Assembly: GCA_011390955.1 (NCBI GenBank)
Contig: JAABRM010000001.1
Span: forward strand, 174,694 to 238,693
DNA: 64,000 nt
Direction: 5' to 3'
Origin: Oscillatoriales cyanobacterium
Lineage (GTDB): Bacteria > Cyanobacteriota > Cyanobacteriia > Cyanobacteriales > Laspinemataceae
Each line of letters starts with the position of its first letter. Position 1 is the first letter of the stretch. The position numbers and the translations under genes are program-made. The notes below the pieces were generated by a model. It worked only from the letters and a program-made list of their open reading frames with translations. It was not told the DNA's origin and made no database searches. Of the stretch, positions 7,014-23,600 are shown one piece after another.

Positions 7014-7170
7014 CTCCTGTGAATTGGGGCTAATATTGAGGCTAAGAATTTGTCATCAGGGTAATTTTAGGTTAAATTATGAAATCCAACCACTTTCAGG
7101 CAGTTACTAAGTTATAATACCTTGTATCCTTAAACCATGTTCCATTAGTAAAAAATCTTAATAATTGATC

Positions 7171-7222
7171 CAAGCAACAAGCAACAATCAACAAGCAACA
7201 ATCAACAATCAACCAACAATAA
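7171..7222. repeat. (CAACAA/CAAGCAA)n block immediately upstream of the kinase start codon
   Basis: caagcaacaagcaacaatcaacaagcaacaatcaacaatcaaccaacaataac ends 4 nt before the ATG at 7227. Member of the CAACAA/TTGTTG repeat family also seen at 29796, 45065, 47941 and 58975. Confidence 0.6.
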
Positions 7223-7226
7223 CATT

Positions 7227-9089
7227 ATGGCAGAATTCCCTGATTTTAGCAAATACGGCTATCAAATAAAACGTGAATTGGGTCGCAATGTAGCCGGAGG
7301 ACGGCTGACCTACTTGGCTAACCGGATTTTACCCCAAAATTCATCAGCCAATAACGCCGAAAACTGGGTAGTGATTAAGCAATTTCAGTTTGCCACAACG
7401 AGCGCCAATTGGTCAGATTTTAAAGCCCACGATCGCGAAATTAAAGTTTTGCAAAGCCTCGATCGTCCAGGAATTCCTAAATATTTGGATTCTTTCGAGA
7501 CGCCCACGGGTTTTTGTATGGTGCAGGAGTATAAAGAAGCAAAATCTCTGGGAATATTACGCAGTTTTGAGCCAGAACAGATTAAACAAATTGCCCTAGA
7601 CTTGTTAGGAATTTTAGTTTATTTACAAAGTTTAAACCCGTTGGTGATTCATCGAGATATCAAACCAGAAAATATTTTAGTGGCGGAAAATTCCGCAGGT
7701 TCGCTGAAGGTTTATCTGGTTGATTTTGGCTTTGCTCAAATGGGCGGGGGCGAAGTGGCGATGAGCAGTATGGTGAAAGGCACTCTAGGGTTTATGGCAC
7801 CGGAACAGTTGTTTAATCGCAATCTGACTCCGGCATCGGATCTTTATGGTTTGGGGGCGTCTTTAATTTGTTTGCTGACGGCAACTAAATCGATGGAGGT
7901 GGGTAAGTTATTGGATGAAAACTATCATTTTGAATTTAGAGAATTGCTGCCTAAATTGAGTCGGCGCTGGATTTCTTGGCTGGAAAAAATGGTCGAGCCA
8001 GATCCGAAAAATCGCTATGCAAATGCGGCGGAAGCTTTGGCGGCATTGCAACCAATTTATGTTAACCGAACCCCAGAGGTTAAGCTGAGTCCGTCTCCCA
8101 TTGAGTTAGCCGCGTCCAAGGTTGGGGAAACGTTGCGGGTGCAGGTGCTAATAAAAAATTCTGTGCCAGAAACGTTGCTGACGGGTTGGTGGGAGGTGGC
8201 ACCGCATCCGAACGATCCCCCCCAGCCCCCCTTATTAAAGGGGGAGAACGATCCCCCCCAGCCCCCCTTATTAAGGGGGGAGAACGATCCCCCCCAGCCC
8301 CCCTTATTAAGGGGGGAGAACGATCCCCTCCAGCCCCCCTTATTAAGCCATTCTTGGATTAGTTTTAGTCCGTCAAGATTTGCAGACAATCGCGTGGTTT
8401 GTGAGATTTTGATTAATACGCGGAAGCTGAGAACGGGTCAAGTTTACGATCGCCAATTGTTGTTACATACGAATGGGGTGCCGGAAACTCAGACGGTCAG
8501 CTTGACGGTGCAGACGGCGCCGGTGCCGATCGCGGTGCGAAAATTGCCTCGTCGGTTTTTGGGATTACTGTTTTTGGTGGCTGCCGGTGGTTCGGTGGTG
8601 GCTTTGGAGTCCATGATGACTTTGGTGACGGTGGCGATCGCCGGTTTTGTGACTTGGGCGGGTCTTTCGCGGATTTTGGGCAGTCGAAACCATTGGCTAA
8701 AAGTGCTTGTAGCTTTTTTGACTACAATGGTAGTGGCGGGAATTGCCGGATTTGGGATTGGCGTTGTGCTTGGGGCGACGGCGACCGGGTTGTGGACAAC
8801 GGCGATCGCTGCTGCGGTGACGGTGGCAACAGGGGCAAGCTTGCTGGCAACTGCCACGGGAGTGAGAAAAAATTTCGGTACTGGGTGGGCGATCGCGCTT
8901 TGTTTGCTCACAGCAATTTGCGGCATTACTTTCGGTCTGGGTTTAAAATTACAATTATTAGCCTCTCCCTGGCTGTTAGCAATTGCTACCACTGCCCCGG
9001 TACTCGCTTTAGTCCTAATTTTGCCCGCCAGCGATCGGCGACGCCTTGCCAAATATCGGCAATCGGAGCAACATTTAATTGAATCTTAG
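7227..9089 (+). CDS. Membrane-anchored Hanks-type Ser/Thr protein kinase (N-terminal kinase domain, C-terminal multi-TM hydrophobic domain), paralog A
   Basis: Kinase motifs HRDIKPENILV, VDFGFAQ, GTLGFMAPEQ. The C-terminal ~200 aa is almost entirely hydrophobic helices. The central part contains the in-frame 36-bp tandem repeat. Confidence 0.85.
   Translation: MAEFPDFSKYGYQIKRELGRNVAGGRLTYLANRILPQNSSANNAENWVVIKQFQFATTSANWSDFKAHDREIKVLQSLDRPGIPKYLDSFETPTGFCMVQEYKEAKSLGILRSFEPEQIKQIALDLLGILVYLQSLNPLVIHRDIKPENILVAENSAGSLKVYLVDFGFAQMGGGEVAMSSMVKGTLGFMAPEQLFNRNLTPASDLYGLGASLICLLTATKSMEVGKLLDENYHFEFRELLPKLSRRWISWLEKMVEPDPKNRYANAAEALAALQPIYVNRTPEVKLSPSPIELAASKVGETLRVQVLIKNSVPETLLTGWWEVAPHPNDPPQPPLLKGENDPPQPPLLRGENDPPQPPLLRGENDPLQPPLLSHSWISFSPSRFADNRVVCEILINTRKLRTGQVYDRQLLLHTNGVPETQTVSLTVQTAPVPIAVRKLPRRFLGLLFLVAAGGSVVALESMMTLVTVAIAGFVTWAGLSRILGSRNHWLKVLVAFLTTMVVAGIAGFGIGVVLGATATGLWTTAIAAAVTVATGASLLATATGVRKNFGTGWAIALCLLTAICGITFGLGLKLQLLASPWLLAIATTAPVLALVLILPASDRRRLAKYRQSEQHLIES
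8210..8347 (+). repeat. In-frame 36-bp tandem repeat (3.8 copies), each unit carrying the palindrome CCCCCCTTATTAAGGGGGG
   Basis: Unit GAACGATCCCCCCCAGCCCCCCTTATTAAGGGGGGA starts at 8210, 8246, 8282 and 8318. It is translated as (ENDPPQPPLL[K/R]G)n. Paralog B (9295..11235) has no repeat at the equivalent site (APHPNDPKVKPPGHGW). Confidence 0.9.
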
Positions 9090-9090
9090 T

Positions 9091-9219
9091 TAAGTAGGTG
9101 AAGATAATTAATTGCACTTTTCGTTTCCCTCCGTAAATCCGTGGATTCCCGCCTGCGCGGGAATGACAGTTTTTCTTTTAATGGGGTCTATGGTGCATTT
9201 ATTTCTGCCCACCTACTTA
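9091..9219 (+). mobile_element. MITE-like element copy A (129 bp) with terminal inverted repeats TAAGTAGGTG / CACCTACTTA and an internal hairpin
   Basis: Termini are inverted complements. Internal ATTCCCGCCTGCGCGGGAAT palindrome. No coding capacity. Near-identical copies at 11285..11411 and, reverse-oriented, at 41164..41317. Confidence 0.8.
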
Positions 9220-9294
9220 TTTGTTATTTCTGATTTATTATGCAAATCTGCAAATAACAAATAAAGCATAACCCAAATATACAAGCTATTCATA

Positions 9295-11235
9295 ATGAAC
9301 TTCCCTGATTTTTCCCAACAAGGCTATCAAATTATCGAAGAACTAGGCCATAATCATGCCGGTGGTCGAGTCACTTATTTAGCATCAACTTTAGCATCAA
9401 ATCATCCTGAAGAAAAAGTTGTCATTAAAGAGTTTCAATTTGCCAAAAGTTCGGAAACCTCTTGGGCAGAGTACGACGCTTACCAAAGAGAGATAGAAGT
9501 ATTGCAGGGATTAAATCATCCGGGAATTCCTCGGTATTTAAACTCTTTTGAGACCGCCCAGGGTTTTTGTTTGGTGCAAGAATATAAAAATGCCCAACCT
9601 TTATCCGTTGAAAATGCTTGGATCGCCAAAGATATTAAAAAAATTGCGATCGCGCTATTAGAAATATTAGCCTATTTGCAAAATAGAATACCTCCAGTAT
9701 TTCATCGGGATATCAAGCCAGAAAATATCCTAGTAGATGGCCAACTCAATGTTTATTTAGTCGATTTTGGTTTTGCCCATATTGGTCAGGGAGAAGTAGC
9801 CATGAGTAGCATGGTTAAGGGCACCTTGGGCTTTATGCCACCAGAACAGTTATTTAACCAAGAATTGACCCTGGGTTCAGACCTTTATGGAGTCGGGGCA
9901 ACCCTGATTTGTTTGTTGACTCAGACTAAATCGGTGGATATTGGGAATTTAATTGATGCTTACTATCGGATTAATTTTAAATCTAAAATTCGGCGGATTA
10001 ATCCAGATTTAATTAACTGGCTAGAAAAAATGGTCGAACCGAAACCAAAAGACCGTTTTCCTGATGCTAATACTGCCTTAGAAGCCCTGAAGCCCCTAGA
10101 AGTACGACCAACGGCAAAAGTTAATTGTAGCGCTCAAATTGTTGAAGTCACCGCTCGTGAATTTTCAGAACAACTCACCACTAAAATCGTGATTTCAAAT
10201 CCGATTCGGGGGACAATGCTGGCGGGTCGATTAGCGATCGCGCCCCATCCTAACGACCCAAAAGTAAAACCCCCCGGTCATGGCTGGATTCACATCAGTC
10301 CTCGTCATTTTAAACAGAATCAAGTTCAGTGTAATATTACCATATCTACGAAAAAATTACAAGCAGATTCAACTTATGAACGAGAAATTTTATTAATCAC
10401 CAATGCTAGTAATGAACCGTATAGAATTCCTCTCAGAGTGAATACGGCGTCATTGCCCAAACAAAGTCAGCTACCCTACGGCCATATCGCCACATTATTT
10501 GGCTTGAGTTTTCTTTTATGTTGGCGAATATTATTTGTATTGTGCGGCCATCTGATCTTTTCTTTGATTTTTCATAGTTATGGTTTTTTATTGTTATTAA
10601 TTATCCTAATTGGATGGGCGGTGTTGGCTCAAAAGTTGAGTGAAGAAAAATATGCGACAAACACTGGTGCATGGGCTGGGTTAATTATGTCGGCAGCGAT
10701 CGCATTGGTGACAGGTAATCTTTTTTTAGATATCTTTAATCTAGGTACGGTAATGATGGTATTGGGCAGTTGTTTGGGTGCTCATGCGGGGGGACTTACA
10801 GAAATATTCACTTGGTGGTTTACCAAAACTTCAGCCCCGCACATCGCCAAGGTATTAGCTGGGGCGATCGCCGGTACAATGGCGGCAATTACTGTGTCTT
10901 TATATTACACAAAATATTACATAGAATTACTCCCAGGAGATATCGGAATTTTGTTCTGGTTAATTATGGGAATGTTTGTCAGCGTGTTTGTCGGGGTAGT
11001 GGTCTCTGATTTGATGCTAGAAGATTTTACCCCCCCCTGGGCTGTGACTTTTTCTTTGTTAACTATGGGTCTGGGAATGACAATAGGCATGGTCTCGATC
11101 TGGGGCTGGTGGTCGATGTTATTGCCGGGAATTATTATGGCCGTTTGTTTGGGTAAAATGATTTCTCCCACCACTAAGCGATCGCGCTTAATTAAAACCT
11201 ATCAAAAAAATATATTGCAGTTGATTAAACCCTAG
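9295..11235 (+). CDS. Membrane-anchored Hanks-type Ser/Thr protein kinase, paralog B
   Basis: Kinase domain is collinear with paralog A (HRDIKPENILV, VDFGFAH, GTLGFMPPEQ). Multi-TM C-terminal half. Confidence 0.85.
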   Translation: MNFPDFSQQGYQIIEELGHNHAGGRVTYLASTLASNHPEEKVVIKEFQFAKSSETSWAEYDAYQREIEVLQGLNHPGIPRYLNSFETAQGFCLVQEYKNAQPLSVENAWIAKDIKKIAIALLEILAYLQNRIPPVFHRDIKPENILVDGQLNVYLVDFGFAHIGQGEVAMSSMVKGTLGFMPPEQLFNQELTLGSDLYGVGATLICLLTQTKSVDIGNLIDAYYRINFKSKIRRINPDLINWLEKMVEPKPKDRFPDANTALEALKPLEVRPTAKVNCSAQIVEVTAREFSEQLTTKIVISNPIRGTMLAGRLAIAPHPNDPKVKPPGHGWIHISPRHFKQNQVQCNITISTKKLQADSTYEREILLITNASNEPYRIPLRVNTASLPKQSQLPYGHIATLFGLSFLLCWRILFVLCGHLIFSLIFHSYGFLLLLIILIGWAVLAQKLSEEKYATNTGAWAGLIMSAAIALVTGNLFLDIFNLGTVMMVLGSCLGAHAGGLTEIFTWWFTKTSAPHIAKVLAGAIAGTMAAITVSLYYTKYYIELLPGDIGILFWLIMGMFVSVFVGVVVSDLMLEDFTPPWAVTFSLLTMGLGMTIGMVSIWGWWSMLLPGIIMAVCLGKMISPTTKRSRLIKTYQKNILQLIKP

Positions 11236-11448: not shown

Positions 11449-12150
11449 ATGAAAAACCGCGCAACTTTTTGGCTTGTTTTTCCCTTAATGCTGGGCTTAT
11501 TTGCCTGTTCAAATTCCGGGGAAAGCGATCTCGCCGATACATCCACTGTGCCCCCTCCACCGGCAGAAAATCCGGTGAGTAACCCATTACCCGTTCCCAC
11601 AACTCCCCCGGCAGATATGGCCAATCAGCGATCGGGAACTTCCGGGAAATCCGCAGCAATGTCCCCGGAAATTCGCCAGCAAATTTTAACGGAACTTTAT
11701 AGTCAGCAAGAAGCATTAAATCTCTGCGATGGTTTCTTGGATCGAAACTATTCCCAAACCGAGTCACAAGTCTTCGCTTTAGACGCAGAAACTTATTTAG
11801 TGCATTTACAATGTAGTTTAGCCGCTTATCAAGCCAGTTTTGAATTTTTGACCTATCAGAAAACTGCGTCGGGCGGTGAATTTACGCCCATGAACCTGAC
11901 TGTATTTAGCGAAAACCCATCGGGAGAACCGACTGAAGAAAATGTGAGAACTTTGGGGGGAATGCCGACCTATGATCCAGAAACGCGATCGCTGACTATT
12001 TTTACCAGATTTAGAGGATTAGGTGATTGTGGTTCATTCGCCAACTATCAACTAAAAGACGGTCAATTTCGCCTGGTGAAATACCAAGCAAAATTTGCCT
12101 GTGATGGCAATGCGATCGACCCAGAAACATATCCGCAAATTTTTCCTTAG
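11449..12150 (+). CDS. Hypothetical lipoprotein
   Basis: Signal peptide with lipobox LGLFAC, then a Pro-rich linker. No recognisable catalytic motif. Confidence 0.55.
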   Translation: MKNRATFWLVFPLMLGLFACSNSGESDLADTSTVPPPPAENPVSNPLPVPTTPPADMANQRSGTSGKSAAMSPEIRQQILTELYSQQEALNLCDGFLDRNYSQTESQVFALDAETYLVHLQCSLAAYQASFEFLTYQKTASGGEFTPMNLTVFSENPSGEPTEENVRTLGGMPTYDPETRSLTIFTRFRGLGDCGSFANYQLKDGQFRLVKYQAKFACDGNAIDPETYPQIFP

Positions 12151-12256
12151 AAGTATCAGATAAGTATCAGAAACCGGGTTTCCGCCCACATTGGGTAACG
12201 GGGGCAAAAATTATCGCCGAAATCCGGTTTTTGGGGTAGCCATTTAAATATCCCAT

Positions 12257-13897
12257 TTAAATATCAATTTTTACTTCTACTTGTGAATTGGTTAACCGAG
12301 AAACCTTTTCACTATCTTCAGGATCTAAGCGAATTTTTACCTCGACCACGCGCACATCTACATCAGCGGTGGGGTCTGTATCTAAAATATCTCGTTTGCC
12401 AATTTTCCAGCCAATTTGATCTACAGTTCCCGCCAATTCAGAGGCGATCGCATCACTGGTAATTAAAGCCCGTTGACCCAAACGGACTTGGGAAATATCT
12501 GTCTCATAAATTTCTGCCACTACATACATTCGATCGGTCTGACCAATCTCAACAATGCCATCATTACTAATTAACTCACCGGGACGAGTAAAAATATCCA
12601 AAACCCGGCCATTAATCGGGGATCTAATATAAGCTTGATCCAGGTCAACTTGGGCTTGAGAAACAGCAGCGATCGCTCGATCCACTTCTGATTGCGCCAC
12701 GGTCACATCCACGGGGCGAACTTCCATTAAACTATTCAAAATCGAACTAGCCTGATTAACTTGCTCATTGCCGGTTTCTAAAATTCGTTTAAAGTTAGTT
12801 TGGGCTTGAGTAATTTCGGCGTTGGAGGTGGTGTTAATTCGTTCTAAATTGGCTTTAGCTTCTGCGATTTGTTTATTCCCCGTTTGCATAATCCGGGTTA
12901 AAATGACTTGTGCTTCATTAATTTTTTCCCGACCCGTGATGAGCATTTCTTGGAGTACGGCATCAGCTTCTTTTAATCTTTCCTGACCCGTTTGGACTGC
13001 TAATCGTTTCGTATCAAATAATGACTGACTAATAGCCCCTTCTCGATACAGTTGTTCGTGACGCCAATATTCAGTTTGAGCATTGTCTAATTCAGCATAT
13101 AAGCGATCGATGGTCGCTTGTTGGGCCTGAATATTTCCCTCTAATTCCGCTGCCAAACGTTGAATTGTCGCTTCCTGGGCAGCTATATCCCCACTGAGTT
13201 GGGCCTCTAAGCGAGCGATCGCCGCTTCTTGGGTGAGAGTCTCCCCTCGTTGTTGGGCTTCGAGACGAGCGATCGCCGCTTGTTGCCCTTCCAACTCCCT
13301 GGGAATTTGGGCTTTCAGTCGGGCAATTTCTGCTTTTTGGGCATCAATATCACCAGTTCTTGTCCCCGCTCTCACTTTGTCTAAATTTGCTTGGGCAATT
13401 TTTACTTGCTGTTTGGCTACTTCCAAAGCTTGTAAAAGGCGATCGCGACTATCCAAAATAGCGATTACTTGCCCTTCTCGCACGCGATCGCCTACTTCCA
13501 CAAATAACTCTTGTAACTTATCTGAAGGTTGGCCGAGTCCTTGACCCCCTCTTGCTGACAGTTTGATCGTTTCTTCTTTCGGTTCAATGCGACCTAAACC
13601 GGAGATCGCTTTTTCTGATAATAAAGGGGGTAAAGTTTCTGGGGTAGAAAAGAAATTTACCCCCAGAGTTGACTGGGAATCGATCAGAATATAAAGAGAA
13701 AAACCGCCAGTAGCGATCGCACCTAATACCACCAGTGCGATCGCCCAGGTGGGGATGAAACCTTTGTGTTTTGTTCCCTTGAACAAAATACCCAGAGTTT
13801 TGCCAGCATCAGATTGAATAGACTCCCGATAAATGGGACTCTGCTGTAGCTGATTCTCTGGCATTTCATCAAGATTTTCTTTAAACCCCTCACCCAT
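12257..13897 (-). CDS. HlyD/DevB-family membrane fusion (periplasmic adaptor) protein of an ABC-type exporter
   Basis: N-terminal TM helix. Long coiled coil with repeated AIARLEAQ heptads. C-terminal beta-barrel/lipoyl-like segment typical of the HlyD family (RSPINGRVLDI...VVAEIYETDI...VDVRVVEVKI). Confidence 0.7.
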   Translation of the reverse strand: MGEGFKENLDEMPENQLQQSPIYRESIQSDAGKTLGILFKGTKHKGFIPTWAIALVVLGAIATGGFSLYILIDSQSTLGVNFFSTPETLPPLLSEKAISGLGRIEPKEETIKLSARGGQGLGQPSDKLQELFVEVGDRVREGQVIAILDSRDRLLQALEVAKQQVKIAQANLDKVRAGTRTGDIDAQKAEIARLKAQIPRELEGQQAAIARLEAQQRGETLTQEAAIARLEAQLSGDIAAQEATIQRLAAELEGNIQAQQATIDRLYAELDNAQTEYWRHEQLYREGAISQSLFDTKRLAVQTGQERLKEADAVLQEMLITGREKINEAQVILTRIMQTGNKQIAEAKANLERINTTSNAEITQAQTNFKRILETGNEQVNQASSILNSLMEVRPVDVTVAQSEVDRAIAAVSQAQVDLDQAYIRSPINGRVLDIFTRPGELISNDGIVEIGQTDRMYVVAEIYETDISQVRLGQRALITSDAIASELAGTVDQIGWKIGKRDILDTDPTADVDVRVVEVKIRLDPEDSEKVSRLTNSQVEVKIDI

Positions 13898-13926
13898 AAA
13901 ATATCAACTCAACATTTTTGGATTCA

Positions 13927-14973
13927 TTACTTTAGTTTGTCATAAGCGGCCAGAATGAGTTTTTCGGTTTCCTCCCAGCTAATACATTTATCTGTCACCG
14001 ACACCCCATATTTTAAATCCTTCAAATCCTTGGGAATACTTTGATTGCCTTCAAACAAATGAGATTCTAACATCATGCCCACAATTGAATCATGGCCGTC
14101 TAAAATTTGCTCGATCGCATTTTCAAATACCGCAGTTTGTTTCCGGTGGTCTTTATTAGAATTGCCGTGACTGCAATCAATCACAATTCTTTGGGGTAAA
14201 TCCGCTGCTTTTAAGCGTTCTTCCGCAAACTTGACCCAAGCCGCATCATAATTTGGCTTGCCGCCGCCGCCGCGTAAAATAATATGACAGTAGGGGTTCC
14301 CAGTAGTCTTAAATAAGCTCACTTGTCCTTGTTGATTAATCCCTAAAAAACTGTGAGGTTCTCTAGCGGATTGCATCGCATTAATCGCCACTTCAATGCT
14401 GCCATCGGTGCTATTTTTTAAGCCAACTGGCATCGAAAGTCCGCTGGTCATTTCCCGGTGAGTTTGTGATTCAATCGTCCGCGCACCAATAGCAGCCCAA
14501 GAAATCAGTTCACCAATATACTGAGGCACAATGGGATCGAGAGCTTCGGTGCCCGCAGGTAATCCTAACTCAGCAATTTTCAGCAACAAATTCCGAGCCA
14601 AAATTAAGCCCTTATCAATATGGAAAGAATCATCCATATTTGGGTCATTAATTAAGCCTTTCCACCCCACCGTTGTCCGGGGTTTTTCAAAGTAAACCCG
14701 CATAATTAGCAGCATCTTATCCCGCACGCGATCGGCTAAAGGTTTTAGTTTTTGGGCATAAACTTCTGCGGCGTCGATATCATGAATTGAACAAGGGCCA
14801 ACCACAACAAATTTTCGGGAATCTTGCCCCGCAATAATTTTTTTCAATTCCGAGCGATAGGTTAGAACCGTTTTTTCAGCGGGATCCGTTAACGGTAACT
14901 TTTCTTTGATCTCTTGAGGAGTGAGTAAGACTCGCGAACTTTCAATATGGGTGTTAAATATTTCTTTAAGCAT
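13927..14973 (-). CDS. aroG: 3-deoxy-7-phosphoheptulonate (DAHP) synthase, class I
   Basis: VVVGPCSIHD motif and overall collinearity with the AroF/G/H family. Length 348 aa. Confidence 0.85.
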   Translation of the reverse strand: MLKEIFNTHIESSRVLLTPQEIKEKLPLTDPAEKTVLTYRSELKKIIAGQDSRKFVVVGPCSIHDIDAAEVYAQKLKPLADRVRDKMLLIMRVYFEKPRTTVGWKGLINDPNMDDSFHIDKGLILARNLLLKIAELGLPAGTEALDPIVPQYIGELISWAAIGARTIESQTHREMTSGLSMPVGLKNSTDGSIEVAINAMQSAREPHSFLGINQQGQVSLFKTTGNPYCHIILRGGGGKPNYDAAWVKFAEERLKAADLPQRIVIDCSHGNSNKDHRKQTAVFENAIEQILDGHDSIVGMMLESHLFEGNQSIPKDLKDLKYGVSVTDKCISWEETEKLILAAYDKLK

Positions 14974-15510: not shown

Positions 15511-17031
15511 TTACTTTGGCCGTTTCACCCCTCCTTTACGTTTCACTTGAAAGCCATACAAATAAATTTCCGGCATATTAATCAGTCCATCAAAACGACT
15601 TTCAACAATTCCCAGTTGGAGTAAATATTTCAATATTTCTTCAGAGTTATTAGCCGGTGGTTTTTTTTCAGGTCTTTCACTCCATCGAGTAGATTGTACC
15701 CGATCTAAAAATGTCTCCCTGGGCATCGGAGCATTCAAACCCACTAAGCTAGTCTTCAGCGATTCTAACCAGGGGTATTCCTCTTGTAATTCCCGAATGC
15801 GATCTTCGGAAGTATCCATTAAAGCCCCCTGTAAATCAGAAGGTTGCAACAGTTTTGTTTCCGGTAGGTTCTGTTCAGATTGTGCGGAAATTCTTCTGCT
15901 GGCTGCTAAGGCAAATAATTTTAGAAAAGAACGTGGGGCAATTCGACCACCAGCATCTTGAAGGTGATTAGGAATCCAACGATAGGTAATTCCTTTTTTA
16001 GGAGCATTTCCCATATACTTACCAATCATCATCTCGATCAGTTGTTCCAACAATTTTTCGTTGGATGTGGCAGTCCATCCCAAGCTATTTTTTTCTTCAA
16101 TAATTAAACCTGGAATGTTTTGTAAATATGCTCGCATTTCATTACTATAATTGGCGAGACGCTTGACTAAAAGTTGGTAAAGCCAGGAATGTTGCCACTC
16201 CAAGCGAATTTGATGACCCGATAGTTTGGAAGCATCGGGAAAATTCAAAAATTCTTCTCGAAATAGATCGGTTCGCAAAAATATTTTCGGGCAGATTCTC
16301 TCCCAACGGCGCGATCGATCCAGCCATAAGGCTAAAAGTTCACGAATTGGGCTGGCTAAGGCAGTGTAAGAACTGACTAACCGATCTAATTCGTCATAAT
16401 TAACAAATAACCAATTATCGGTTTCGATTAATTTTTCATCTAATTTATCTAATACATCATTAAATTTTTCTAGATGTTCATTCACCAAAGGCAGCCAATC
16501 GGATAAAAGGGACAATTTTTCTTTTAGTTTATTGGCAATAAAAGCGATCGCTGGATCGATTTCGGCAAAAATAAAATCTTTTAGCTTACAGTCTTCTTGC
16601 TGTAGGATAACACCTAACATTAACCCGATCCAAAAACTGCGCCATTCAATGTTTGTAGCATTTGGCATCAGAGACTCAACAATGTCTGGTGTCGGAAAGC
16701 GCTTTTCTGCCTTGCGAGTCCGCCCAAAGCCAGCTATCCATGTTGTTTGGCTTAAAGGAGGTAATGCTCTAATTTTCAAACTTTCCACCAAAGCTTCCCG
16801 TCCTGAAGGAATGGCCAGTAAACGGAATAATTCTGTTTTGCCGACGCCCCGACCTCCTTGGATTAATAATATATTAGGTTCTAGTGCCCTGCGATAATCG
16901 GCAATCGGCAAAAAGTTTTTTAAGAATTCCTCCTCATTATAGCTTTCACCTTCAGCGGCTGCCCCTCCAGGGGCAATTTGACTAATTAATTCCAGTAAAT
17001 TTTGTTGATTAAATTCACTCATGGTTTTCAT
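15511..17031 (-). CDS. P-loop NTPase of unknown family (Walker A GGRGVGKT near the N-terminus), third gene of a three-gene operon
   Basis: LIQGGRGVGKTELFRLL Walker A. Candidate Walker B LFVNYDELD. No match to a named family that I recognise. Its start overlaps the upstream gene's stop by 4 nt (ATGA). Confidence 0.6.
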   Translation of the reverse strand: MKTMSEFNQQNLLELISQIAPGGAAAEGESYNEEEFLKNFLPIADYRRALEPNILLIQGGRGVGKTELFRLLAIPSGREALVESLKIRALPPLSQTTWIAGFGRTRKAEKRFPTPDIVESLMPNATNIEWRSFWIGLMLGVILQQEDCKLKDFIFAEIDPAIAFIANKLKEKLSLLSDWLPLVNEHLEKFNDVLDKLDEKLIETDNWLFVNYDELDRLVSSYTALASPIRELLALWLDRSRRWERICPKIFLRTDLFREEFLNFPDASKLSGHQIRLEWQHSWLYQLLVKRLANYSNEMRAYLQNIPGLIIEEKNSLGWTATSNEKLLEQLIEMMIGKYMGNAPKKGITYRWIPNHLQDAGGRIAPRSFLKLFALAASRRISAQSEQNLPETKLLQPSDLQGALMDTSEDRIRELQEEYPWLESLKTSLVGLNAPMPRETFLDRVQSTRWSERPEKKPPANNSEEILKYLLQLGIVESRFDGLINMPEIYLYGFQVKRKGGVKRPK

Positions 17032-18404
17032 TGATTAACTTTGTTGAATTCACGGCCAAAAATTAAACATAATTTTTCGGCAATATTCTGATAATGAAAA
17101 TCAGTCATTATTCTGACAATATCTGACAGTCTATTTAACTCTTCTGGGCTTGAGTTGCGGCTAAATAGAGCAATGTCTCCTCGGAGGATATCCTGATATG
17201 GTACAACAAAAGGGTTAAATGGCGCATCGGGATCGTTGGCGTTAGGGACAGTTTCATTTTCAGAATAATAGTTATTTTGAAAAATGGTGTAGGCTTGTTC
17301 TCGAAATTCAGTTAACTCTTGTTCCCTGCCCGTTATGCCTAATCCTGGTGCCATTGAATGTACGAGAATCAACGGCAAACGGTCATCAACTCCAGGGCTG
17401 GCTAAATGGCGAATCACATGGGTTAAACCCGCCCAACTTTGACGGGATTTCGTGCTAAAAATAACTGCTGCGTGGGAAAGATTCGCGATCGCCAAGCCAC
17501 CAATATCGTGAAAACCAGCCCGTGCATCCATCAGAATAAAATCTAAAGGTTTGGCGGCACTTTCTAATTCTTTTAACATATCTCCCATTGTCCTGCCGAT
17601 CTCACCATCGACAAGGTTTTGAAAGTCCAACCGGGCTAATTTTTCTAAGTAATCGCGATCGACGGTTCCTGCGGGAAGTAATTGGATGGTTTCGCCCTCA
17701 TCTCCGAGCAAAGTGCGATCGCTAATATTGATCAATTGAGGGCGAAGTTTCCAATTCTTTCCTTGCACCTTTTTTTCCAGTAAATAATCAATCACCCCAA
17801 AATTATGAGAGTCATCAGGTAAAAAAATTGTGGCCAGACCTGGTGCTTCTAAATCCAGATCGACAATCGCCGATCGATGACCATTACGAGCTAAAGTCAA
17901 TGCGGTTGCAACCAGGGTACTTGTTCGCCCCACACCGCCTTTAAAAGAGAAAAAAGATATGATGGCAGGCTTATATTTTTGATAGACTAATTCTGGTTTC
18001 CAAGGTGGTTGACCGACGTTTTTATTTGTCCATGCTTGTTTGGCAATATGACGCTCAAGAATATACCAGCGAAGTGTCTCTGATTCATCATCCCAAGATG
18101 CCGGTTCCCTTTCGGCTTTAATCGTATCAATTAAAGCTTTATAAGCATCTTGTTCTCCGGTAGGCAACCAAATATCATTCCCATAATAAAGCCCAAGGTT
18201 TTGAGAAAGAAACCGATCCAGGTGAGTTGTATTAACGGCTTCTGGTGTTTGTCCTCCTGATAAATCAAGAAACAGGCGAATTTTGCCATTCACATCACGA
18301 ATAATGGTGACAGACTCAAGCTTAGGTACAAGTTCAGATAAAATACTTGGTTCCTGAAAGCATTCCCTTACTTTCTCTAATGTTTGACCAAAAGCGATCG
18401 TCAT
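17028..18404 (-). CDS. ParA/MinD-like ATPase with deviant Walker A KGGVGR (KGGVGR-motif variant AAA ATPase) and a ~150-aa N-terminal extension
   Basis: FFSFKGGVGRTSTLVATALTLA motif. ParA-like fold continues with DLDLEAPGL. The N-terminal 150 aa are unassigned. Confidence 0.7.
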   Translation of the reverse strand: MTIAFGQTLEKVRECFQEPSILSELVPKLESVTIIRDVNGKIRLFLDLSGGQTPEAVNTTHLDRFLSQNLGLYYGNDIWLPTGEQDAYKALIDTIKAEREPASWDDESETLRWYILERHIAKQAWTNKNVGQPPWKPELVYQKYKPAIISFFSFKGGVGRTSTLVATALTLARNGHRSAIVDLDLEAPGLATIFLPDDSHNFGVIDYLLEKKVQGKNWKLRPQLINISDRTLLGDEGETIQLLPAGTVDRDYLEKLARLDFQNLVDGEIGRTMGDMLKELESAAKPLDFILMDARAGFHDIGGLAIANLSHAAVIFSTKSRQSWAGLTHVIRHLASPGVDDRLPLILVHSMAPGLGITGREQELTEFREQAYTIFQNNYYSENETVPNANDPDAPFNPFVVPYQDILRGDIALFSRNSSPEELNRLSDIVRIMTDFHYQNIAEKLCLIFGREFNKVNQ

Positions 18405-18407
18405 GGA

Positions 18408-18854
18408 TTAAATATCCTTACTATAAATTGAGCCATTTAGCACTAAGTTTGGGATGATTTTCCGGTAAATTGCTTCGGCAGCTTCAACCGCTAACTTTGC
18501 TTGTTCTTCAGTCCAAAGCGGAGACTTGGCATACCTTCTTTCAGGGTGATCCTGCGCTAAAACAGTATCAATGATTGTTGCACATGGAAGTTGTCGATCT
18601 AAAATGGGATAGATAACCCGCAACCTTTCCATTGCCCTTCCCTCAAGTTCATTGAGGTCATGTCCATACTTCTTGACGGCCTTTTTATCATGCTTAAAAT
18701 ATTGCTCTACCAGCAGTTTAAAGGAACATTCTACCACATAGCCCGCGAGGTAAACGGCGTTGTCCCAGCGTTGGTTTTCTAAGAGAATTTTGGCATCAAT
18801 CAGATGCCTCCCGGCTGAGTTGGAATAGGACTCTTGCATTGTCTCAGTAATCAC
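18408..18854 (-). CDS. Small HEPN-like protein (first gene of the operon)
   Basis: 148 aa. Helix pattern AVYLAGYVVECSFKLLV...KKYGHDLNELEGRA resembles the minimal HEPN fold (pfam05168-like), but a canonical Rx4-6H motif is not obvious. 3-nt gap to the downstream ATPase gene. Confidence 0.45.
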   Translation of the reverse strand: MITETMQESYSNSAGRHLIDAKILLENQRWDNAVYLAGYVVECSFKLLVEQYFKHDKKAVKKYGHDLNELEGRAMERLRVIYPILDRQLPCATIIDTVLAQDHPERRYAKSPLWTEEQAKLAVEAAEAIYRKIIPNLVLNGSIYSKDI

Positions 18855-19107
18855 GACTATATTTATTTATATCATTAAGGACAAAATGATGGACTTAATT
18901 TTTAATTTTTATGCCAGAGTTAGGGCGATCGCGATTCTAAAGCCGCTTAATTTATTTCATCCGCTGGGTTAACGGGGGGCGATCGCGCAGAAAAAAACGC
19001 TTTCGACTCCCTGGCTGCCACCACACTGACAATTCGTGATATCCTATTTAAAGGTTAGCCTGCTGCCCAGAAAACGTTACACGATAACACTTAGGAAATT
19101 TGCAATT

Positions 19108-20214
19108 ATGTCACTACAAGAAGAAATTGATAAAGTCAGACAAGAAATTAAGACAGATAGTTACTCAATGTCTATTGGCGAGTTGATCAGCCTTTATGAA
19201 CAGGGTGAAATCGATATTCACCCTGATTTTCAAAGGTTTTTCCGTTGGTCAAATTATCAAAAATCAACTTTTATCGAATCAATTATTTTAGGCATCCCAA
19301 TTCCCCCAATTTTTGTCAGTCAAAGAGATGATGGTATTTGGGATGTAGTTGACGGGTTACAAAGACTCTCAACAATTTATGAATTTGTCGGCATTTTGAA
19401 CCAAAATGATACAGATGAATATCAACCTTTTGTTGCTTTAGAAGCAACCACATACTTACCTTCATTGAAAGGTAAAAAGTGGAACGATCCCAATGATGAA
19501 CACAACTCTTTAACTCAATTTCAACGCCTATTAATCAAGCGATCTAAAATCGCCGTGAATATCGTGGCAAAAGAAAGCGATAAAATGATTAAATATGAGC
19601 TATTTCAGCGACTCAATACAGGCGGTTCGATCGCTACACCCCAAGAAGTAAGAAATTGCATTGTTTTAATGTTGAATAAGGATTTATATAAATTGATGCG
19701 TTCATTGGCAGATAGAGAGTCTTTTAAAAACTGTATTTCTTTGAGCGATCGCCTGTATGAAGAACAGTATGATATGGAATTAGTATCGCGTTTTATTCTT
19801 CTATACGAGCGAGATAATGCAAGTATTCAAGAGTTAAAGGGTGATGTTAGCGAGTTTTTAACAGTTGGCATACGCCAAATGGCTCTTCAAGAAGATTTAG
19901 ACTACCGTCGTATAGAAAAAGCGTTTGATGTAACATTTAATATTCTTAATGAAGCAATGGGAGATAATAGCTTCAAGCGATATAGAGCGGAAGATGATAG
20001 ATTTCTTGGAGGGTTTCTATTATCTGTTTATGAAGTAGTAGCACTAGGCATTGGATTCCACCACCAAAATCCAATTTCAGCGGATAAAATACCCAATCAA
20101 ATTAAAACTATTTGGTCACATCAAATCTATAAAAAATGGTCGGGGGCTGGAGTAAATGCGGCAAGACGCTTACCCTATCTGATTCAGCTTGGTAGAGAGG
20201 TATTTGCTCCATGA
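19108..20214 (+). CDS. DUF262 (ParB-like/GmrS-like) domain protein
   Basis: DGLQRLSTI motif (the DGQQR signature of DUF262) near the N-terminus. The ATG at 19108 is preferred over the ORF-track start at 19036. The stop overlaps the next gene by 4 nt. Confidence 0.75.
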   Translation: MSLQEEIDKVRQEIKTDSYSMSIGELISLYEQGEIDIHPDFQRFFRWSNYQKSTFIESIILGIPIPPIFVSQRDDGIWDVVDGLQRLSTIYEFVGILNQNDTDEYQPFVALEATTYLPSLKGKKWNDPNDEHNSLTQFQRLLIKRSKIAVNIVAKESDKMIKYELFQRLNTGGSIATPQEVRNCIVLMLNKDLYKLMRSLADRESFKNCISLSDRLYEEQYDMELVSRFILLYERDNASIQELKGDVSEFLTVGIRQMALQEDLDYRRIEKAFDVTFNILNEAMGDNSFKRYRAEDDRFLGGFLLSVYEVVALGIGFHHQNPISADKIPNQIKTIWSHQIYKKWSGAGVNAARRLPYLIQLGREVFAP

Positions 20215-20864
20215 GCATCCGAACTCTTGAAAACTTAAGCGATAAACTAGCTCAAGACTTGGCTTGGCGAAAAAGAGAACTGGCCGAAATTAAATCTTTA
20301 GTAGAAGCGAAAAAAAATGTTTCCGACCAAAGACATAAGGTATTAGTGAGAAGTGCGGTATGTATCCTTTATTCCCATTGGGAAGGTTTCGTAAAATTAG
20401 CGGCTAACGCTTATGTAGAATATGTTCGGCTAAAAAGGCTTACCTACCAGGATATTTCTACTAATTTTTTGGCTTTGGCCATGAAAGAAAAACTGAAGGA
20501 GGCAAAAGAAACCAATAAACCATCTTTGTATATACCCGTTTGTCAGTTTTTGATTTCAGAATTAAATCAACGATGTATTTTACCTAAAGATCCAATATCT
20601 ACTGCATCGAATCTAAACTCAGAAATTTTGAAAGACATCGCGGATATTCTGGGAATAGACTTTTCCCCCTACTTGACGAAATCTAAGTTAATCGATGAAA
20701 AGCTGTTAAAAACCAGAAACGAAATTGCTCACGGGGAGTATTCGGGGGTTGATAGGAATGAGTATATAGAGTTACACCAAGAAATTATCAATCTGCTGGA
20801 TATATTTAAAACCCAAATAGAAAATGCGGCTAGTGAAGAAAGATTTAAGCGCAAGTCACCTTAA
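20211..20864 (+). CDS. HEPN-family putative nuclease (MAE_28990/MAE_18760-like)
   Basis: C-terminal R-x4-H motif (KTRNEIAHGEY) typical of HEPN RNase/nuclease domains. Translationally coupled to the DUF262 gene (ATGA overlap). Confidence 0.6.
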   Translation: MSIRTLENLSDKLAQDLAWRKRELAEIKSLVEAKKNVSDQRHKVLVRSAVCILYSHWEGFVKLAANAYVEYVRLKRLTYQDISTNFLALAMKEKLKEAKETNKPSLYIPVCQFLISELNQRCILPKDPISTASNLNSEILKDIADILGIDFSPYLTKSKLIDEKLLKTRNEIAHGEYSGVDRNEYIELHQEIINLLDIFKTQIENAASEERFKRKSP

Positions 20865-20945
20865 GTTTATCAATCTGTAAATATCAGCAGCCTAAAAAAA
20901 ATAAAGATTAAATCGGTATTATAAAGCAAAGAGGAAAGCAAAATC

Positions 20946-23600
20946 GTGTCCATTGTGTCTCAATTTGATATCGCCAACAAAATTAGCCGTGAGCCCTACT
21001 ACAGCACTCAGCTAGGTTCAGCCTACTTGGGCAATAGTTTAGAACTGATGGCAGAATTGCCCGATGAAAGTGTCGATTTAATTTGCACTTCTCCACCTTT
21101 CGCCCTGGTAAGAAAGAAAGAATACGGCAATGTAGATGCTCATCAATATGTTGAATGGTTCAAGACATTTGCCCGTGAATTCTATCGGATTCTTAAGCCT
21201 CAAGGGTCGCTATTTATCGATATTGGCGGCACTTGGCTGAAAGGTTTTCCGGTGCGATCGCTCTATCATTTTGAGTTAGTCATCGAGCTTTGTCAACCTA
21301 AATCAAAAGGCGGTTTAGGGTTTTTCCTGGCTCAAGAAATTTTCTGGTATAATCCCGCCAAACTTCCGACCCCAGCAGAATGGGTGACAGTGCGACGAGA
21401 GCGGGTGAAAGATGCTGTAAATACGGTTTGGTGGTTATCAAAAGATCCCCACCCTAAAGCCAATAATAAGCGAGTTTTACGCCCTTACAGTGAGGCGATG
21501 AAAAACCTGCTAAAAAATGGTTATGAGGCAAAACTACGCCCCTCTGGACATGATATTTCTACTAAGTTTCAGACCGATCGCGGTGGGGCGATTCCTCCCA
21601 ATATTATCGCCGATACTGCGTCTAGTGCAGGCACATTTATTGGTCAACCAGTATTGGGGGAATTTAATTGGATTTTAGACCATGATTTAGCCCAGCCCGT
21701 GAATGTGATTGCCGCTTCTAACACCGCATCTAATGACTACTATCAGCGACGCTGCAAGGAAGCCGGAATTAAACCTCATCCGGCGAGATTTCCCCAAGCA
21801 TTACCGGAATTTGCGATCGCACTTTGTACGGAACCCGGTGATTTAGTCCTCGATCCGTTTGCCGGTTCAAATATGACTGGACGAGTCGCCGAAACCCTCG
21901 ATCGCCGTTGGTTAGGCTTTGAATTAGATGAAAATTATATTAAAGCATCACAATTTAGATTTGAAGCCGATGCGCCCCTAGTAGTTAATCCATTAAAAGA
22001 CCGAAAATATCTTAAACAAAAAGCGCTAGATTTAGCCCCTGCCCCTGATTATCGAAAAAAATCATCTACCATAGATGATAAAAATAGTCATATTCAATTA
22101 GACTTATTTCAATCACAGAGTAACGATATGCCAGAACAAAAACTTAAATTCACCTATGGTCATCAGTTTGAACCCAAAACGATGCATTTACCTGAACTGA
22201 TGCAGCTATGTAAAGAAAATCAGCCCGATCGCCGGGTTCTACAGGATGAAATTGCCAAGCGCTACTATTCCAGCCACTCAAACCAAAATGATTTACAGAA
22301 AGGAGAAAATCGTAGCAAACTGGCAATGAATACATTTCTCTCTCTTCGTGCTTACAAGTTAGTTGAATCGATTAATGATGATGATTGGCAGTACCAAGTC
22401 ACAGATATTGCTAATCAAATCCTAGAACATCAAAGTGATGCTGATGAAGTCGCGACAATTTTTGCCCGTCACATCCTGACTAACTTAACCGGAATGTCTT
22501 TACTCAAAGCGGTGGAAGCGATTAATAGTAGAGGCGATCGACCCAAATTGGATTTAATTGGTTATGAACTGCAAGAAATGGGGTATTCTCTCTCTCCCAA
22601 CGCTATTTATGTGAGCACCATGCGACAATGGCTAGAAAAGGCAGGAGTATTTGAGAAAACCTACGAGATTAACTGGGATCGAGTCTATGATATCCTAGAA
22701 CTTGATAAAGATTATATTGACGAGATTTATACTCTGACCTCAGAGCAAAAGTATTTTCTTTTAGCCATGCTCCAGATGAGCATTACAGAACTCACTAAAT
22801 GGAATGACATTGCTAACTATGCGGTGAGTGTTTATAAAGTCCGCTTTCCCTCTAAGTCATTTGTTAAGGATATTATTCAACCTTTAGTAGAATTTGGGTT
22901 GATTTCCACGGAAAAAACTACCGGAGGACGTGGGGCTAAACCTAATCTGGTTAAACTGACGGAAAAAGCGCAACGTGAATTATTGTCTCAACTGTTAGAG
23001 GCGATCGCCGAACTGACAGAAATCTCCCAAACTGAGCTAAATCGAAGTTTTGAAGATGTGGTCAATGATTTAGATCATCCCGATAAACATATTAAAGGCA
23101 AAGCCCTGGAATTGTTAGCAATTTGGATGATTCGTTTGACCAGTCTTCGCTTCACAAAATGGCGGAAACGGGACTATGAAACTGGACAAGGGGAAGTTGA
23201 TGTTTTAGCGGCATCCGATCGCTTTGTCTATCACCGCTGGCAAATTCAGTGCAAAAATACCAAACGAGTTGATGTTGAAGTGTTAGCGAAAGAAGTCGGG
23301 ATGACTTTTGTCACTGGGGCTGATGTGGTAATGATTGTCACCACGGGTGAGTTTACCAGAGATGCTTTCCAATATGCTTATCGGATGATGGAAATATCTC
23401 GTTATTATATGGTGTTAATTCAAAAAGAGGATATTGAGGCGATTAAAGCCGATCGCACTAATATTATTAAGATTCTCGATCGCCGCGCAAGGCGTGTATT
23501 TGCTAAGAAAGAACTGGGGTTAACAGATGATGCGGTGGATGAGATAGAAAGTGAAGAAGATTCCCTGACAGAATTTGAGGGAACCTTGGCAGAAGAATAG
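20946..23600 (+). CDS. Fusion protein: beta-class amino-DNA methyltransferase (N4-C/N6-A) in the N-terminal half, Mrr-like PD-(D/E)xK restriction-endonuclease domain near the C-terminus
   Basis: Motif IV DLICTSPPF precedes motif I DPFAGSNMTG (beta-class order). C-terminal GEVDVLAASD...WQIQCKN matches the Mrr_cat D...(E/Q)xK core. GTG start with GAGGAAAG Shine-Dalgarno. Confidence 0.7.
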   Translation: MSIVSQFDIANKISREPYYSTQLGSAYLGNSLELMAELPDESVDLICTSPPFALVRKKEYGNVDAHQYVEWFKTFAREFYRILKPQGSLFIDIGGTWLKGFPVRSLYHFELVIELCQPKSKGGLGFFLAQEIFWYNPAKLPTPAEWVTVRRERVKDAVNTVWWLSKDPHPKANNKRVLRPYSEAMKNLLKNGYEAKLRPSGHDISTKFQTDRGGAIPPNIIADTASSAGTFIGQPVLGEFNWILDHDLAQPVNVIAASNTASNDYYQRRCKEAGIKPHPARFPQALPEFAIALCTEPGDLVLDPFAGSNMTGRVAETLDRRWLGFELDENYIKASQFRFEADAPLVVNPLKDRKYLKQKALDLAPAPDYRKKSSTIDDKNSHIQLDLFQSQSNDMPEQKLKFTYGHQFEPKTMHLPELMQLCKENQPDRRVLQDEIAKRYYSSHSNQNDLQKGENRSKLAMNTFLSLRAYKLVESINDDDWQYQVTDIANQILEHQSDADEVATIFARHILTNLTGMSLLKAVEAINSRGDRPKLDLIGYELQEMGYSLSPNAIYVSTMRQWLEKAGVFEKTYEINWDRVYDILELDKDYIDEIYTLTSEQKYFLLAMLQMSITELTKWNDIANYAVSVYKVRFPSKSFVKDIIQPLVEFGLISTEKTTGGRGAKPNLVKLTEKAQRELLSQLLEAIAELTEISQTELNRSFEDVVNDLDHPDKHIKGKALELLAIWMIRLTSLRFTKWRKRDYETGQGEVDVLAASDRFVYHRWQIQCKNTKRVDVEVLAKEVGMTFVTGADVVMIVTTGEFTRDAFQYAYRMMEISRYYMVLIQKEDIEAIKADRTNIIKILDRRARRVFAKKELGLTDDAVDEIESEEDSLTEFEGTLAEE

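Follow-up and report, generated by a model that had tools for sequence, protein, structure and literature searches.

Operon layout, identity and distribution

Within a 64,000-nucleotide stretch of contig JAABRM010000001.1 (GenBank assembly GCA_011390955.1) from an Oscillatoriales cyanobacterium, hereafter the window, the list of open reading frames (ORFs) gives three consecutive minus-strand genes at positions 15511–18854, which we refer to as A (HEPN), B (ParA/MinD-like, with a KGGVGR motif) and C (P-loop ATPase). Gene A (18408–18854) encodes a small HEPN protein of the PF05168 or HEPN-T type, 148 amino acids long when read from the GTG at 18854. Gene B (17028–18404; 458 amino acids) encodes a KGGVGR ParA/MinD-like NTPase of the SIMIBI class, and gene C (15511–17031; 506 amino acids) a Sll1717-family AAA+ ATPase with a predicted ORC/Cdc6/‘archaeal ATPase’/BrxC-like fold. 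A and B are separated by a 3-nucleotide gap (TAA-tcc-ATG), and B and C overlap by 4 nucleotides, B ending at 17028 and C starting at 17031. An earlier note on this DNA, made from the sequence alone, had described three coupled minus-strand genes, and its coordinates, gap and overlap were all borne out. Curated hidden Markov model matches with E-values as low as 1e-64 and 1e-81, together with hundreds of full-length homologues, identify A, B and C as real genes and not chance ORFs.

The same note gave gene A a length of 148 amino acids. The GTG-initiated ORF exists as described, but the start is probably the ATG at 18839, yielding a protein of 143 amino acids (‘MQES...’), because homologues begin there and the 143-residue form was called independently on two metagenome contigs that encode an identical C protein in the same gene arrangement. 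Directly upstream of A, in the divergent intergenic region, lies a promoter-like site on the minus strand (TTGTCC and TATAGT separated by 17 nucleotides; 18856–18884), whose −10-like TATAGT ends at 18856, 2 nucleotides ahead of the GTG. This is a consensus match only, and the promoter and terminator consensus scan returned counts no higher than those of shuffled sequences (7 promoter-like sites versus 9.1 ± 3.0, not significant alone), and the site served as a minor hint on the start codon of A. With the start at 18839 and this site as promoter, the 5′ leader would be very short. An Rfam scan of the whole 64-kb window found no family at gathering score.

Each of the three proteins matches its counterpart in PDC-M28, a candidate system in PADLOC-DB v2. 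Protein A matches PDC-M28A (PDLC04558) with an E-value of 1.2e-12 (residues 6–129 on profile positions 1–125 of 138), B matches PDC-M28B (PDLC04559) at 4.2e-64 (residues 1–409 on 1–401 of 438) and C matches PDC-M28C (PDLC04561) at 1.1e-81 (residues 4–505 on 1–479 of 480). The genes are adjacent and co-oriented, and their order A>>B>>C equals that of the cassette FAM_01482>>FAM_02546>>FAM_01036, with the FAM numbers assigned to A, B and C in order by inference from the PADLOC A/B/C naming. This cassette, CAS_00115, has 121 RefSeq occurrences in the supplement of Payne, Hughes, Fineran and Jackson (2024; bioRxiv 10.1101/2024.01.29.577857). PDC-M28 was nominated there through ‘guilt by embedding’ in BREX, DISARM and type I restriction-modification (RM) loci, and it belongs to a set of 145 candidates that the authors call untested (10.1101/2024.01.29.577857). 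The window operon and PDC-M28 are the same module, with no structural difference between them, and PDC-M28 is known as a catalogue entry alone. It is nearly certain that the operon is a typical PDC-M28 copy, a catalogued candidate and not a new kind of system. The earlier note had proposed an undescribed conflict system, a claim that it would have given up on a match to a system named in PADLOC; all three proteins have such matches, in the catalogued order, and the claim fails. What is new here is the survey of co-conservation, the B–C fusions, the copy inside a BREX-2 locus, the ORC/BrxC-like predicted fold of C, the invariant Arg in the B P-loop, the private N-terminal domain of B and the non-canonical HEPN site of A.

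We fetched 78 genome loci by alignment of C homologues and scanned all of their ORFs by phmmer with A, B and C. The trio is intact on one strand in 63 of the 78, and the modal junctions (+3 nucleotides for A/B, −4 for B/C) are those of the window; the conservation of gene neighbourhood that the earlier note had suggested checking is thus present. The other loci are cut by contig ends or visibly degraded (L012, L014, L033, L055 and L056). The trio spans at least eight phyla, is still found at about 30% identity among relatives from Acidobacteria, Chloroflexota, Nitrospirota, Elusimicrobia and Deltaproteobacteria, and occurs in Firmicutes and Planctomycetes too. Cyanobacteria that form blooms or filaments, such as Microcystis, Dolichospermum, Trichodesmium and Microcoleus, carry it particularly often, and plasmid-borne copies are found in Calothrix, Nostoc, Enterobacter, Burkholderia, Streptomyces and others. 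Among scored candidates we counted 883 homologues of C and 1605 of B. The best locus for C among GTDB representatives is in Microcoleus, at 79% protein identity, and an identical C protein was found only on Logan metagenome contigs from runs SRR29699971 and SRR29699999. When the 262 ORFs flanking the trio were clustered, none of the resulting 210 clusters was common beyond one genus, suggesting that there is no fourth component and that the module moves as a unit. No C homologue was found in phage genomes, which leaves no evidence of a phage-borne counter-defence or partition gene.

In four loci (L077, Spirosomataceae; L078, Bacteroides; the second system in L005; and L080, a Nostoc plasmid), B and C form a single polypeptide of 890–1045 amino acids. 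All four fusions keep both Walker A motifs and have an A-like ORF upstream, and this Rosetta-stone evidence argues that B and C function jointly, in a single complex. On the Oscillatoriales contig L005, two versions of the module lie about 2 kb from each other (6181–9500 and 11653–14812): one with the three genes A-B-C, and a divergent one with two genes, encoding a 152-residue HEPN-like ORF and an 896-residue B–C fusion. Their co-occurrence suggests that the two variants are not redundant.

Three of the degraded copies have decayed in different ways. In L012 (7642–8013), the beginning of A runs directly into the end of B through an in-frame deletion, and in L033 (7666–8010) B is reduced to its last 114 residues. 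In L014 (5890–8013), two inserted genes, encoding 183 and 127 amino acids, have taken the place of A and the beginning of B; by eye they look like a small toxin–antitoxin (TA)-like pair. Gene C is intact in all three of these loci.

Conserved sites in the three proteins

The central part of B (residues 146–334) matches the NCBIfam model NF047398, AAA_KGGVGR, for KGGVGR-motif variant AAA ATPases with 181.6 bits (cut-off 90), and the family alignment places its deviant Walker A motif, K155-G-G-V-G-R160, at 17925–17942 on the minus strand. This agrees with the earlier note, which had called B a ParA/MinD-like KGGVGR protein with an unassigned N-terminal part of about 150 residues. Across 69 B-family members, the position of the P-loop Lys holds Arg (R160) in at least 95% while the signature Lys K155 is kept, and D182 and D184 (Walker A′, DxD) and D293 (Walker B) are at least 95% conserved; B consequently fails the deviant Walker A pattern KGGxxK[ST], which has both lysines. 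In P-loop NTPases, Arg in place of this Lys points to a protein that binds nucleotide but hardly hydrolyses it, if at all. R160 suggests that B likewise binds nucleotide and hydrolyses it slowly or not at all, in agreement with Kaur et al. (2020, PMC7159879), who predicted MinD/ParA-like domains of conflict systems to be ‘inactive’.

The first 145 residues of B (17970–18404, minus strand) form a family-private alpha/beta domain with invariant alignment columns and the conserved motifs TIIRD..G..R, YYG.D.W and W..LERH.AK..WT. It has no Pfam match, and in the predicted structure its residues 10–80 have a predicted local distance difference test score (pLDDT) of 73–90. Among 1.84 billion representative proteins the domain occurs in 56 clusters only, always at the N-terminus, whether the protein is B-length, a fragment or a fusion of about 910 amino acids, so that it appears to be private to the module. 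We propose that it may provide the contact surface for A. A degenerate minimal nucleotidyltransferase (MNT) was considered for this domain and dropped, as neither a G[SG]...DxD pattern nor a family match is present.

The remainder of B is predicted to have a ParA/McdA/MinD fold; among PDB sequences B finds only weak P-loop matches of about 40–50 residues. The predicted fold, with marginal Pfam matches to ParA, CbiA and AAA_31 and the label ‘ParA family protein’ on some database entries, is what one would expect of an ordinary ParA-type partition or positioning paralogue with two chance neighbours. We rejected this explanation as extremely improbable. B scores far under the cut-offs of the NCBIfam ParA, MinD and RepA equivalog models (for example, 23.6 bits against 180 for ParA_partition). 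No conserved ParB, centromere-binding, MinE or cargo-adaptor partner lies next to B, where only A and C are conserved. The change of the P-loop Lys to Arg is family-wide, and A, B and C are strictly linked across phyla, even to the point of B–C fusion.

Protein C carries a second, different Walker A motif, GGRGVGKT (residues 59–66; 16834–16857, minus strand), as the earlier note, which could name no family for C, had recognized. Besides the PDC-M28C model, the NCBIfam model NF047389 (P-loop ATPase, Sll1717 family) matches residues 24–478 with 118 bits (cut-off 75). Across 74 C sequences, the most distant included, the Walker A motif with K65, the Walker B residue D213, R367 and a PKIFLRTD block (residues 248–255) are at least 95% conserved. 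The intact Walker motifs are consistent with an active ATPase. Structure prediction suggests that C is an ORC/Cdc6-clade AAA+ ATPase with a BrxC-like fold, its closest structural relatives being DNA-bound initiators, loaders and BrxC. At the level of sequence, the Pfam ORC-CDC6-like model reaches 22.3 bits, under its gathering score of 27, and a PDB search found no match. The C-terminal helix-plus-hairpin looks like a probable winged helix on the pattern of secondary structure alone.

Protein A matches Pfam PF05168 over profile positions 6–113 of 117 with 26.4 bits (gathering score 22), in support of the HEPN-like call of the earlier note, and 17 of 20 diverse A-family members match this model and no other (best E 1.9e-9). 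A match to HEPN_AbiV is weak (E 0.04, 14.5 bits, far under the gathering score of 27.1), the MAE_28990/MAE_18760 model PF18737 does not match A at all, although it matches the unrelated neighbour at 20211–20864 at 4.5e-56, and a PDB sequence search with A found nothing. The invariant residues of the family are H17, D20, R29, D31, E42, K46, H65, R107 and Y108, a polar signature that the Enterobacter, Nostoc and Streptomyces copies share. The canonical Rx4-6H motif is absent from A: the residues after R107 are Y-A-K-S-P-L-W, neither His nor Asp lies 4–6 residues downstream, and the only invariant His residues are H17 and H65. In HEPN-T (PF05168) and AbiV-type domains the canonical His is often missing, with a conserved His elsewhere, and PF05168-type domains include non-catalytic members (Anantharaman et al. 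2013, PMC3710099). On this evidence A is predicted to be a PF05168-type HEPN protein with a non-canonical site.

The missing motif and the existence of non-catalytic PF05168 members allow for a reading in which A has no catalytic activity and serves as a HEPN adaptor or as a subunit that binds nucleotide or RNA, and the B–C complex acts on DNA in the manner of ORC, TnsC, MuB or BrxC, perhaps blocking the replication of invading DNA or regulating adjacent RM or BREX systems. It would fit the nearest structural relatives of C, the ParA fold of B, which is typical of switches that associate with DNA or surfaces, and the location of one module copy between pglW and pglX of a BREX-2 system. We find this explanation distinctly unlikely. 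The invariance of H17, D20, R29, E42, K46, H65, R107 and Y108 across phyla suggests an active or ligand site and not a scaffold, and most copies are not beside RM or BREX genes, so that the module must function alone.

Genomic context and proposed function

The operon is divergent from a restriction-like set on the plus strand (19036–23600). This set consists of a GmrSD_N/DUF262 gene (19036–20214; PADLOC NsnA at 9.7e-61 and PD-T4-2_A at 9e-31), a HEPN_MAE_28990/RiboL-PSP gene (20211–20864; 4.5e-56) that overlaps it by 4 nucleotides, and a gene for an N6_N4 methyltransferase fused to Mrr_cat (20946–23600; 884 amino acids). Pfam matches uphold the earlier description of this neighbouring module, which accompanies the trio on the two metagenome contigs as well. 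Anantharaman et al. (2013, PMC3710099) describe operons that combine a HEPN protein of the MAE_28990 type, a ParB/DUF262 nuclease and a DNA methylase, exactly the arrangement seen here. On the other side of the operon, at 13927–14973, is a housekeeping-type gene whose translation, as we read it, resembles DAHP synthase. Further along, two adjacent paralogous plus-strand ORFs (7227–9089 and 9295–11235; 620 and 646 amino acids) have N-terminal halves that are kinase-like by their motifs (HRDIKPENIL, DFG) and multi-pass hydrophobic C-terminal halves. The 620-residue ORF contains a proline-rich tandem repeat, GENDPPQPPLL[KR], in about 3–4 copies at around 8.25–8.4 kb, and upstream of the pair lies a minus-strand ORF of 1833 amino acids (1512–7013).

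Specific copies in other genomes are embedded in defence loci. In a BREX-2 (Pgl) system on a plasmid of Streptomyces sp. NBC_01334 (L081, 2987–6401), pglW and pglX are separated by the trio, a classic example of the embedding by which PDC systems were nominated, and the Nostoc plasmid copy (L080) adjoins hsdR of a type I RM system. A conjugative IncFIB/IncFII plasmid of Enterobacter asburiae (L079, 3140–6476; NZ_CP063442.1, 78224–81560) carries a trio of 181, 438 and 492 amino acids with overlapping junctions, with a tyrosine recombinase on one side, a TIR-domain protein on the other and a GNAT/DUF1778 TA pair nearby.

Plasmid carriage in five named genera and others, highly variable flanks and partial decay in L012, L014, L033, L055 and L056 would suit a TA or addiction module that stabilizes plasmids or genomic islands and senses no phage, in which A is the toxin, B a ParA/Soj-type antitoxin and C an accessory regulator. 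Such logic was proposed for HEPN and ParA/Soj dyads by Anantharaman et al. (2013, PMC3710099). We nevertheless consider it unlikely, because a large and universally kept AAA+ partner, with intact motifs and fused to B in four loci, is atypical of two-part TA systems, and because embedding in BREX-2 and adjacency to type I RM suit defence better. The presence of a small putative toxin gene first in a tightly coupled operon does not discriminate between the two models, and TA and abortive-infection functions are not mutually exclusive.

Taken together, its context points to a self-contained, horizontally transferred module that behaves like a conflict system, for defence or abortive infection. 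By analogy with its ORC, TnsC, BrxC and STAND relatives, C would be an ATP-driven sensor and switch that recognizes foreign DNA or a phage protein. B would be a nucleotide-binding ParA-fold dimerization switch physically coupled to C, with slow or no hydrolysis expected from the replacement of the P-loop Lys by Arg while the signature Lys and acidic residues are kept. Its private N-terminal domain would restrain A, in place of the MNT antitoxin of MNT–HEPN pairs, until an infection cue rearranges the B–C complex and A is released or activated. Freed A might then cleave RNA through the alternative His (H65) and Arg (R107), as in HEPN-T and AbiV-type domains, arresting the infected cell.

We regard as moderately probable the combined statement that the operon is both a PDC-M28 member and a conflict module with C as sensor, B as switch and A as effector. 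For this functional logic on its own, whose steps we infer, we would give roughly even odds. We hold more tentatively, as a possibility short of probable, that it is a genuine anti-phage system in which an ORC/BrxC-like sensor is wired through a crippled ParA-fold switch to a non-canonical HEPN effector.

Several observations weigh against the proposed mechanism. A lacks Rx4-6H, so RNase activity is not assured, and a profile of its family finds among PDB entries a weak match to the HEPN structure 1wol (E 0.21). The predicted structure of B is of low confidence (pLDDT 62.6). Although a clear defence-island signal was expected in the neighbour census of the 78 loci, only a weak one was found: defence genes are a minority among 139 non-redundant neighbours, most of which look housekeeping, with DISARM (2), type IIG RM (2), PtuA of Septu (2), Csx1 (3) and IS605/TnpB (3–4) represented. 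The 7.7 million PMC papers and 0.34 million preprints searched make no mention of PDC-M28, of Sll1717 or of KGGVGR in this sense, the only text match to KGGVGR being a mushroom lectin peptide. A literature search combining HEPN, ParA-like ATPase and anti-phage found nothing relevant. No experimental test of PDC-M28 was found in the literature, and M28 was not among the several PDC systems put to the test in a later study. Given the weak census, the inference of defence rests on the window neighbours, the specific embedded cases and the published embedding screen; the assignment is reasonable, though made by association.

If the proposed mechanism is true, it would be unseen in characterized systems and would represent a new regulatory logic for HEPN nucleases, replacing control by MNT-type AMPylation. 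In the case of a defence system, a ParA-fold pseudo-ATPase and an ORC-like sensor would join the parts known to control HEPN effectors, with relevance to cyanophage ecology. PDC-M28 is widespread, carried on conjugative plasmids and uncharacterized, which makes it a sound target for phage challenge. Its anatomy (the fusions, invariant residues, private domain and BREX-2 embedding) points to concrete mutants, and the Enterobacter copy lends itself to experiments in E. coli.

Comparison with known systems

Relatives of the individual components are known in other settings. From the AAA+ proteins of the ORC/Cdc6 clade and the ‘archaeal ATPase’ group, BrxC included, C differs in having just 10–15% sequence identity to them and an NCBIfam family of its own, Sll1717. 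AbiV, the lactococcal abortive-infection HEPN protein, is like A in lacking Rx4-6H and in having an alternative conserved His, but it is a single-gene system with no ATPase partners.

For B, predicted-inactive MinD/ParA-like domains recur in the NTP-dependent conflict systems of multicellular bacteria (Kaur et al. 2020, PMC7159879). The vWA-MoxR (VMAP) systems likewise have a ParA/MinD-fold domain with a compromised site and a bias to filamentous cyanobacteria and actinomycetes. In those systems the domain occupies the effector position, fused to vWA, kinase or AP-ATPase proteins, whereas B is stand-alone, has a private N-terminal domain and is partnered by an ORC-like ATPase and a HEPN protein; the likeness is one of kind and does not imply orthology.

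As for the operon as a whole, MNT–HEPN systems (HepT/MntA, type VII) also couple a minimal HEPN protein tightly to a partner that uses nucleotides and presumably controls it. They differ from the present module in that the N-terminal domain of B has no detectable MNT motif or Pfam match and A does not have the Rx4-6H used by HepT, and Pfam and NCBIfam scans found no nucleotidyltransferase family in B, C or the neighbouring genes. Another described arrangement is a HEPN and ParA/Soj-ATPase dyad, for which the ATPase was proposed to replace the MNT as antitoxin (Anantharaman et al. 2013, PMC3710099). In this MAE_18760 dyad, a small HEPN protein is likewise placed beside a ParA/Soj-like SIMIBI ATPase in the usual MNT position, a resemblance to B that is again by kind, with orthology not implied. 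In contrast to the dyad, A is of the PF05168 or HEPN-T type, the HEPN gene comes first, and the module includes a third, obligatory gene for an ORC-like AAA+ protein.

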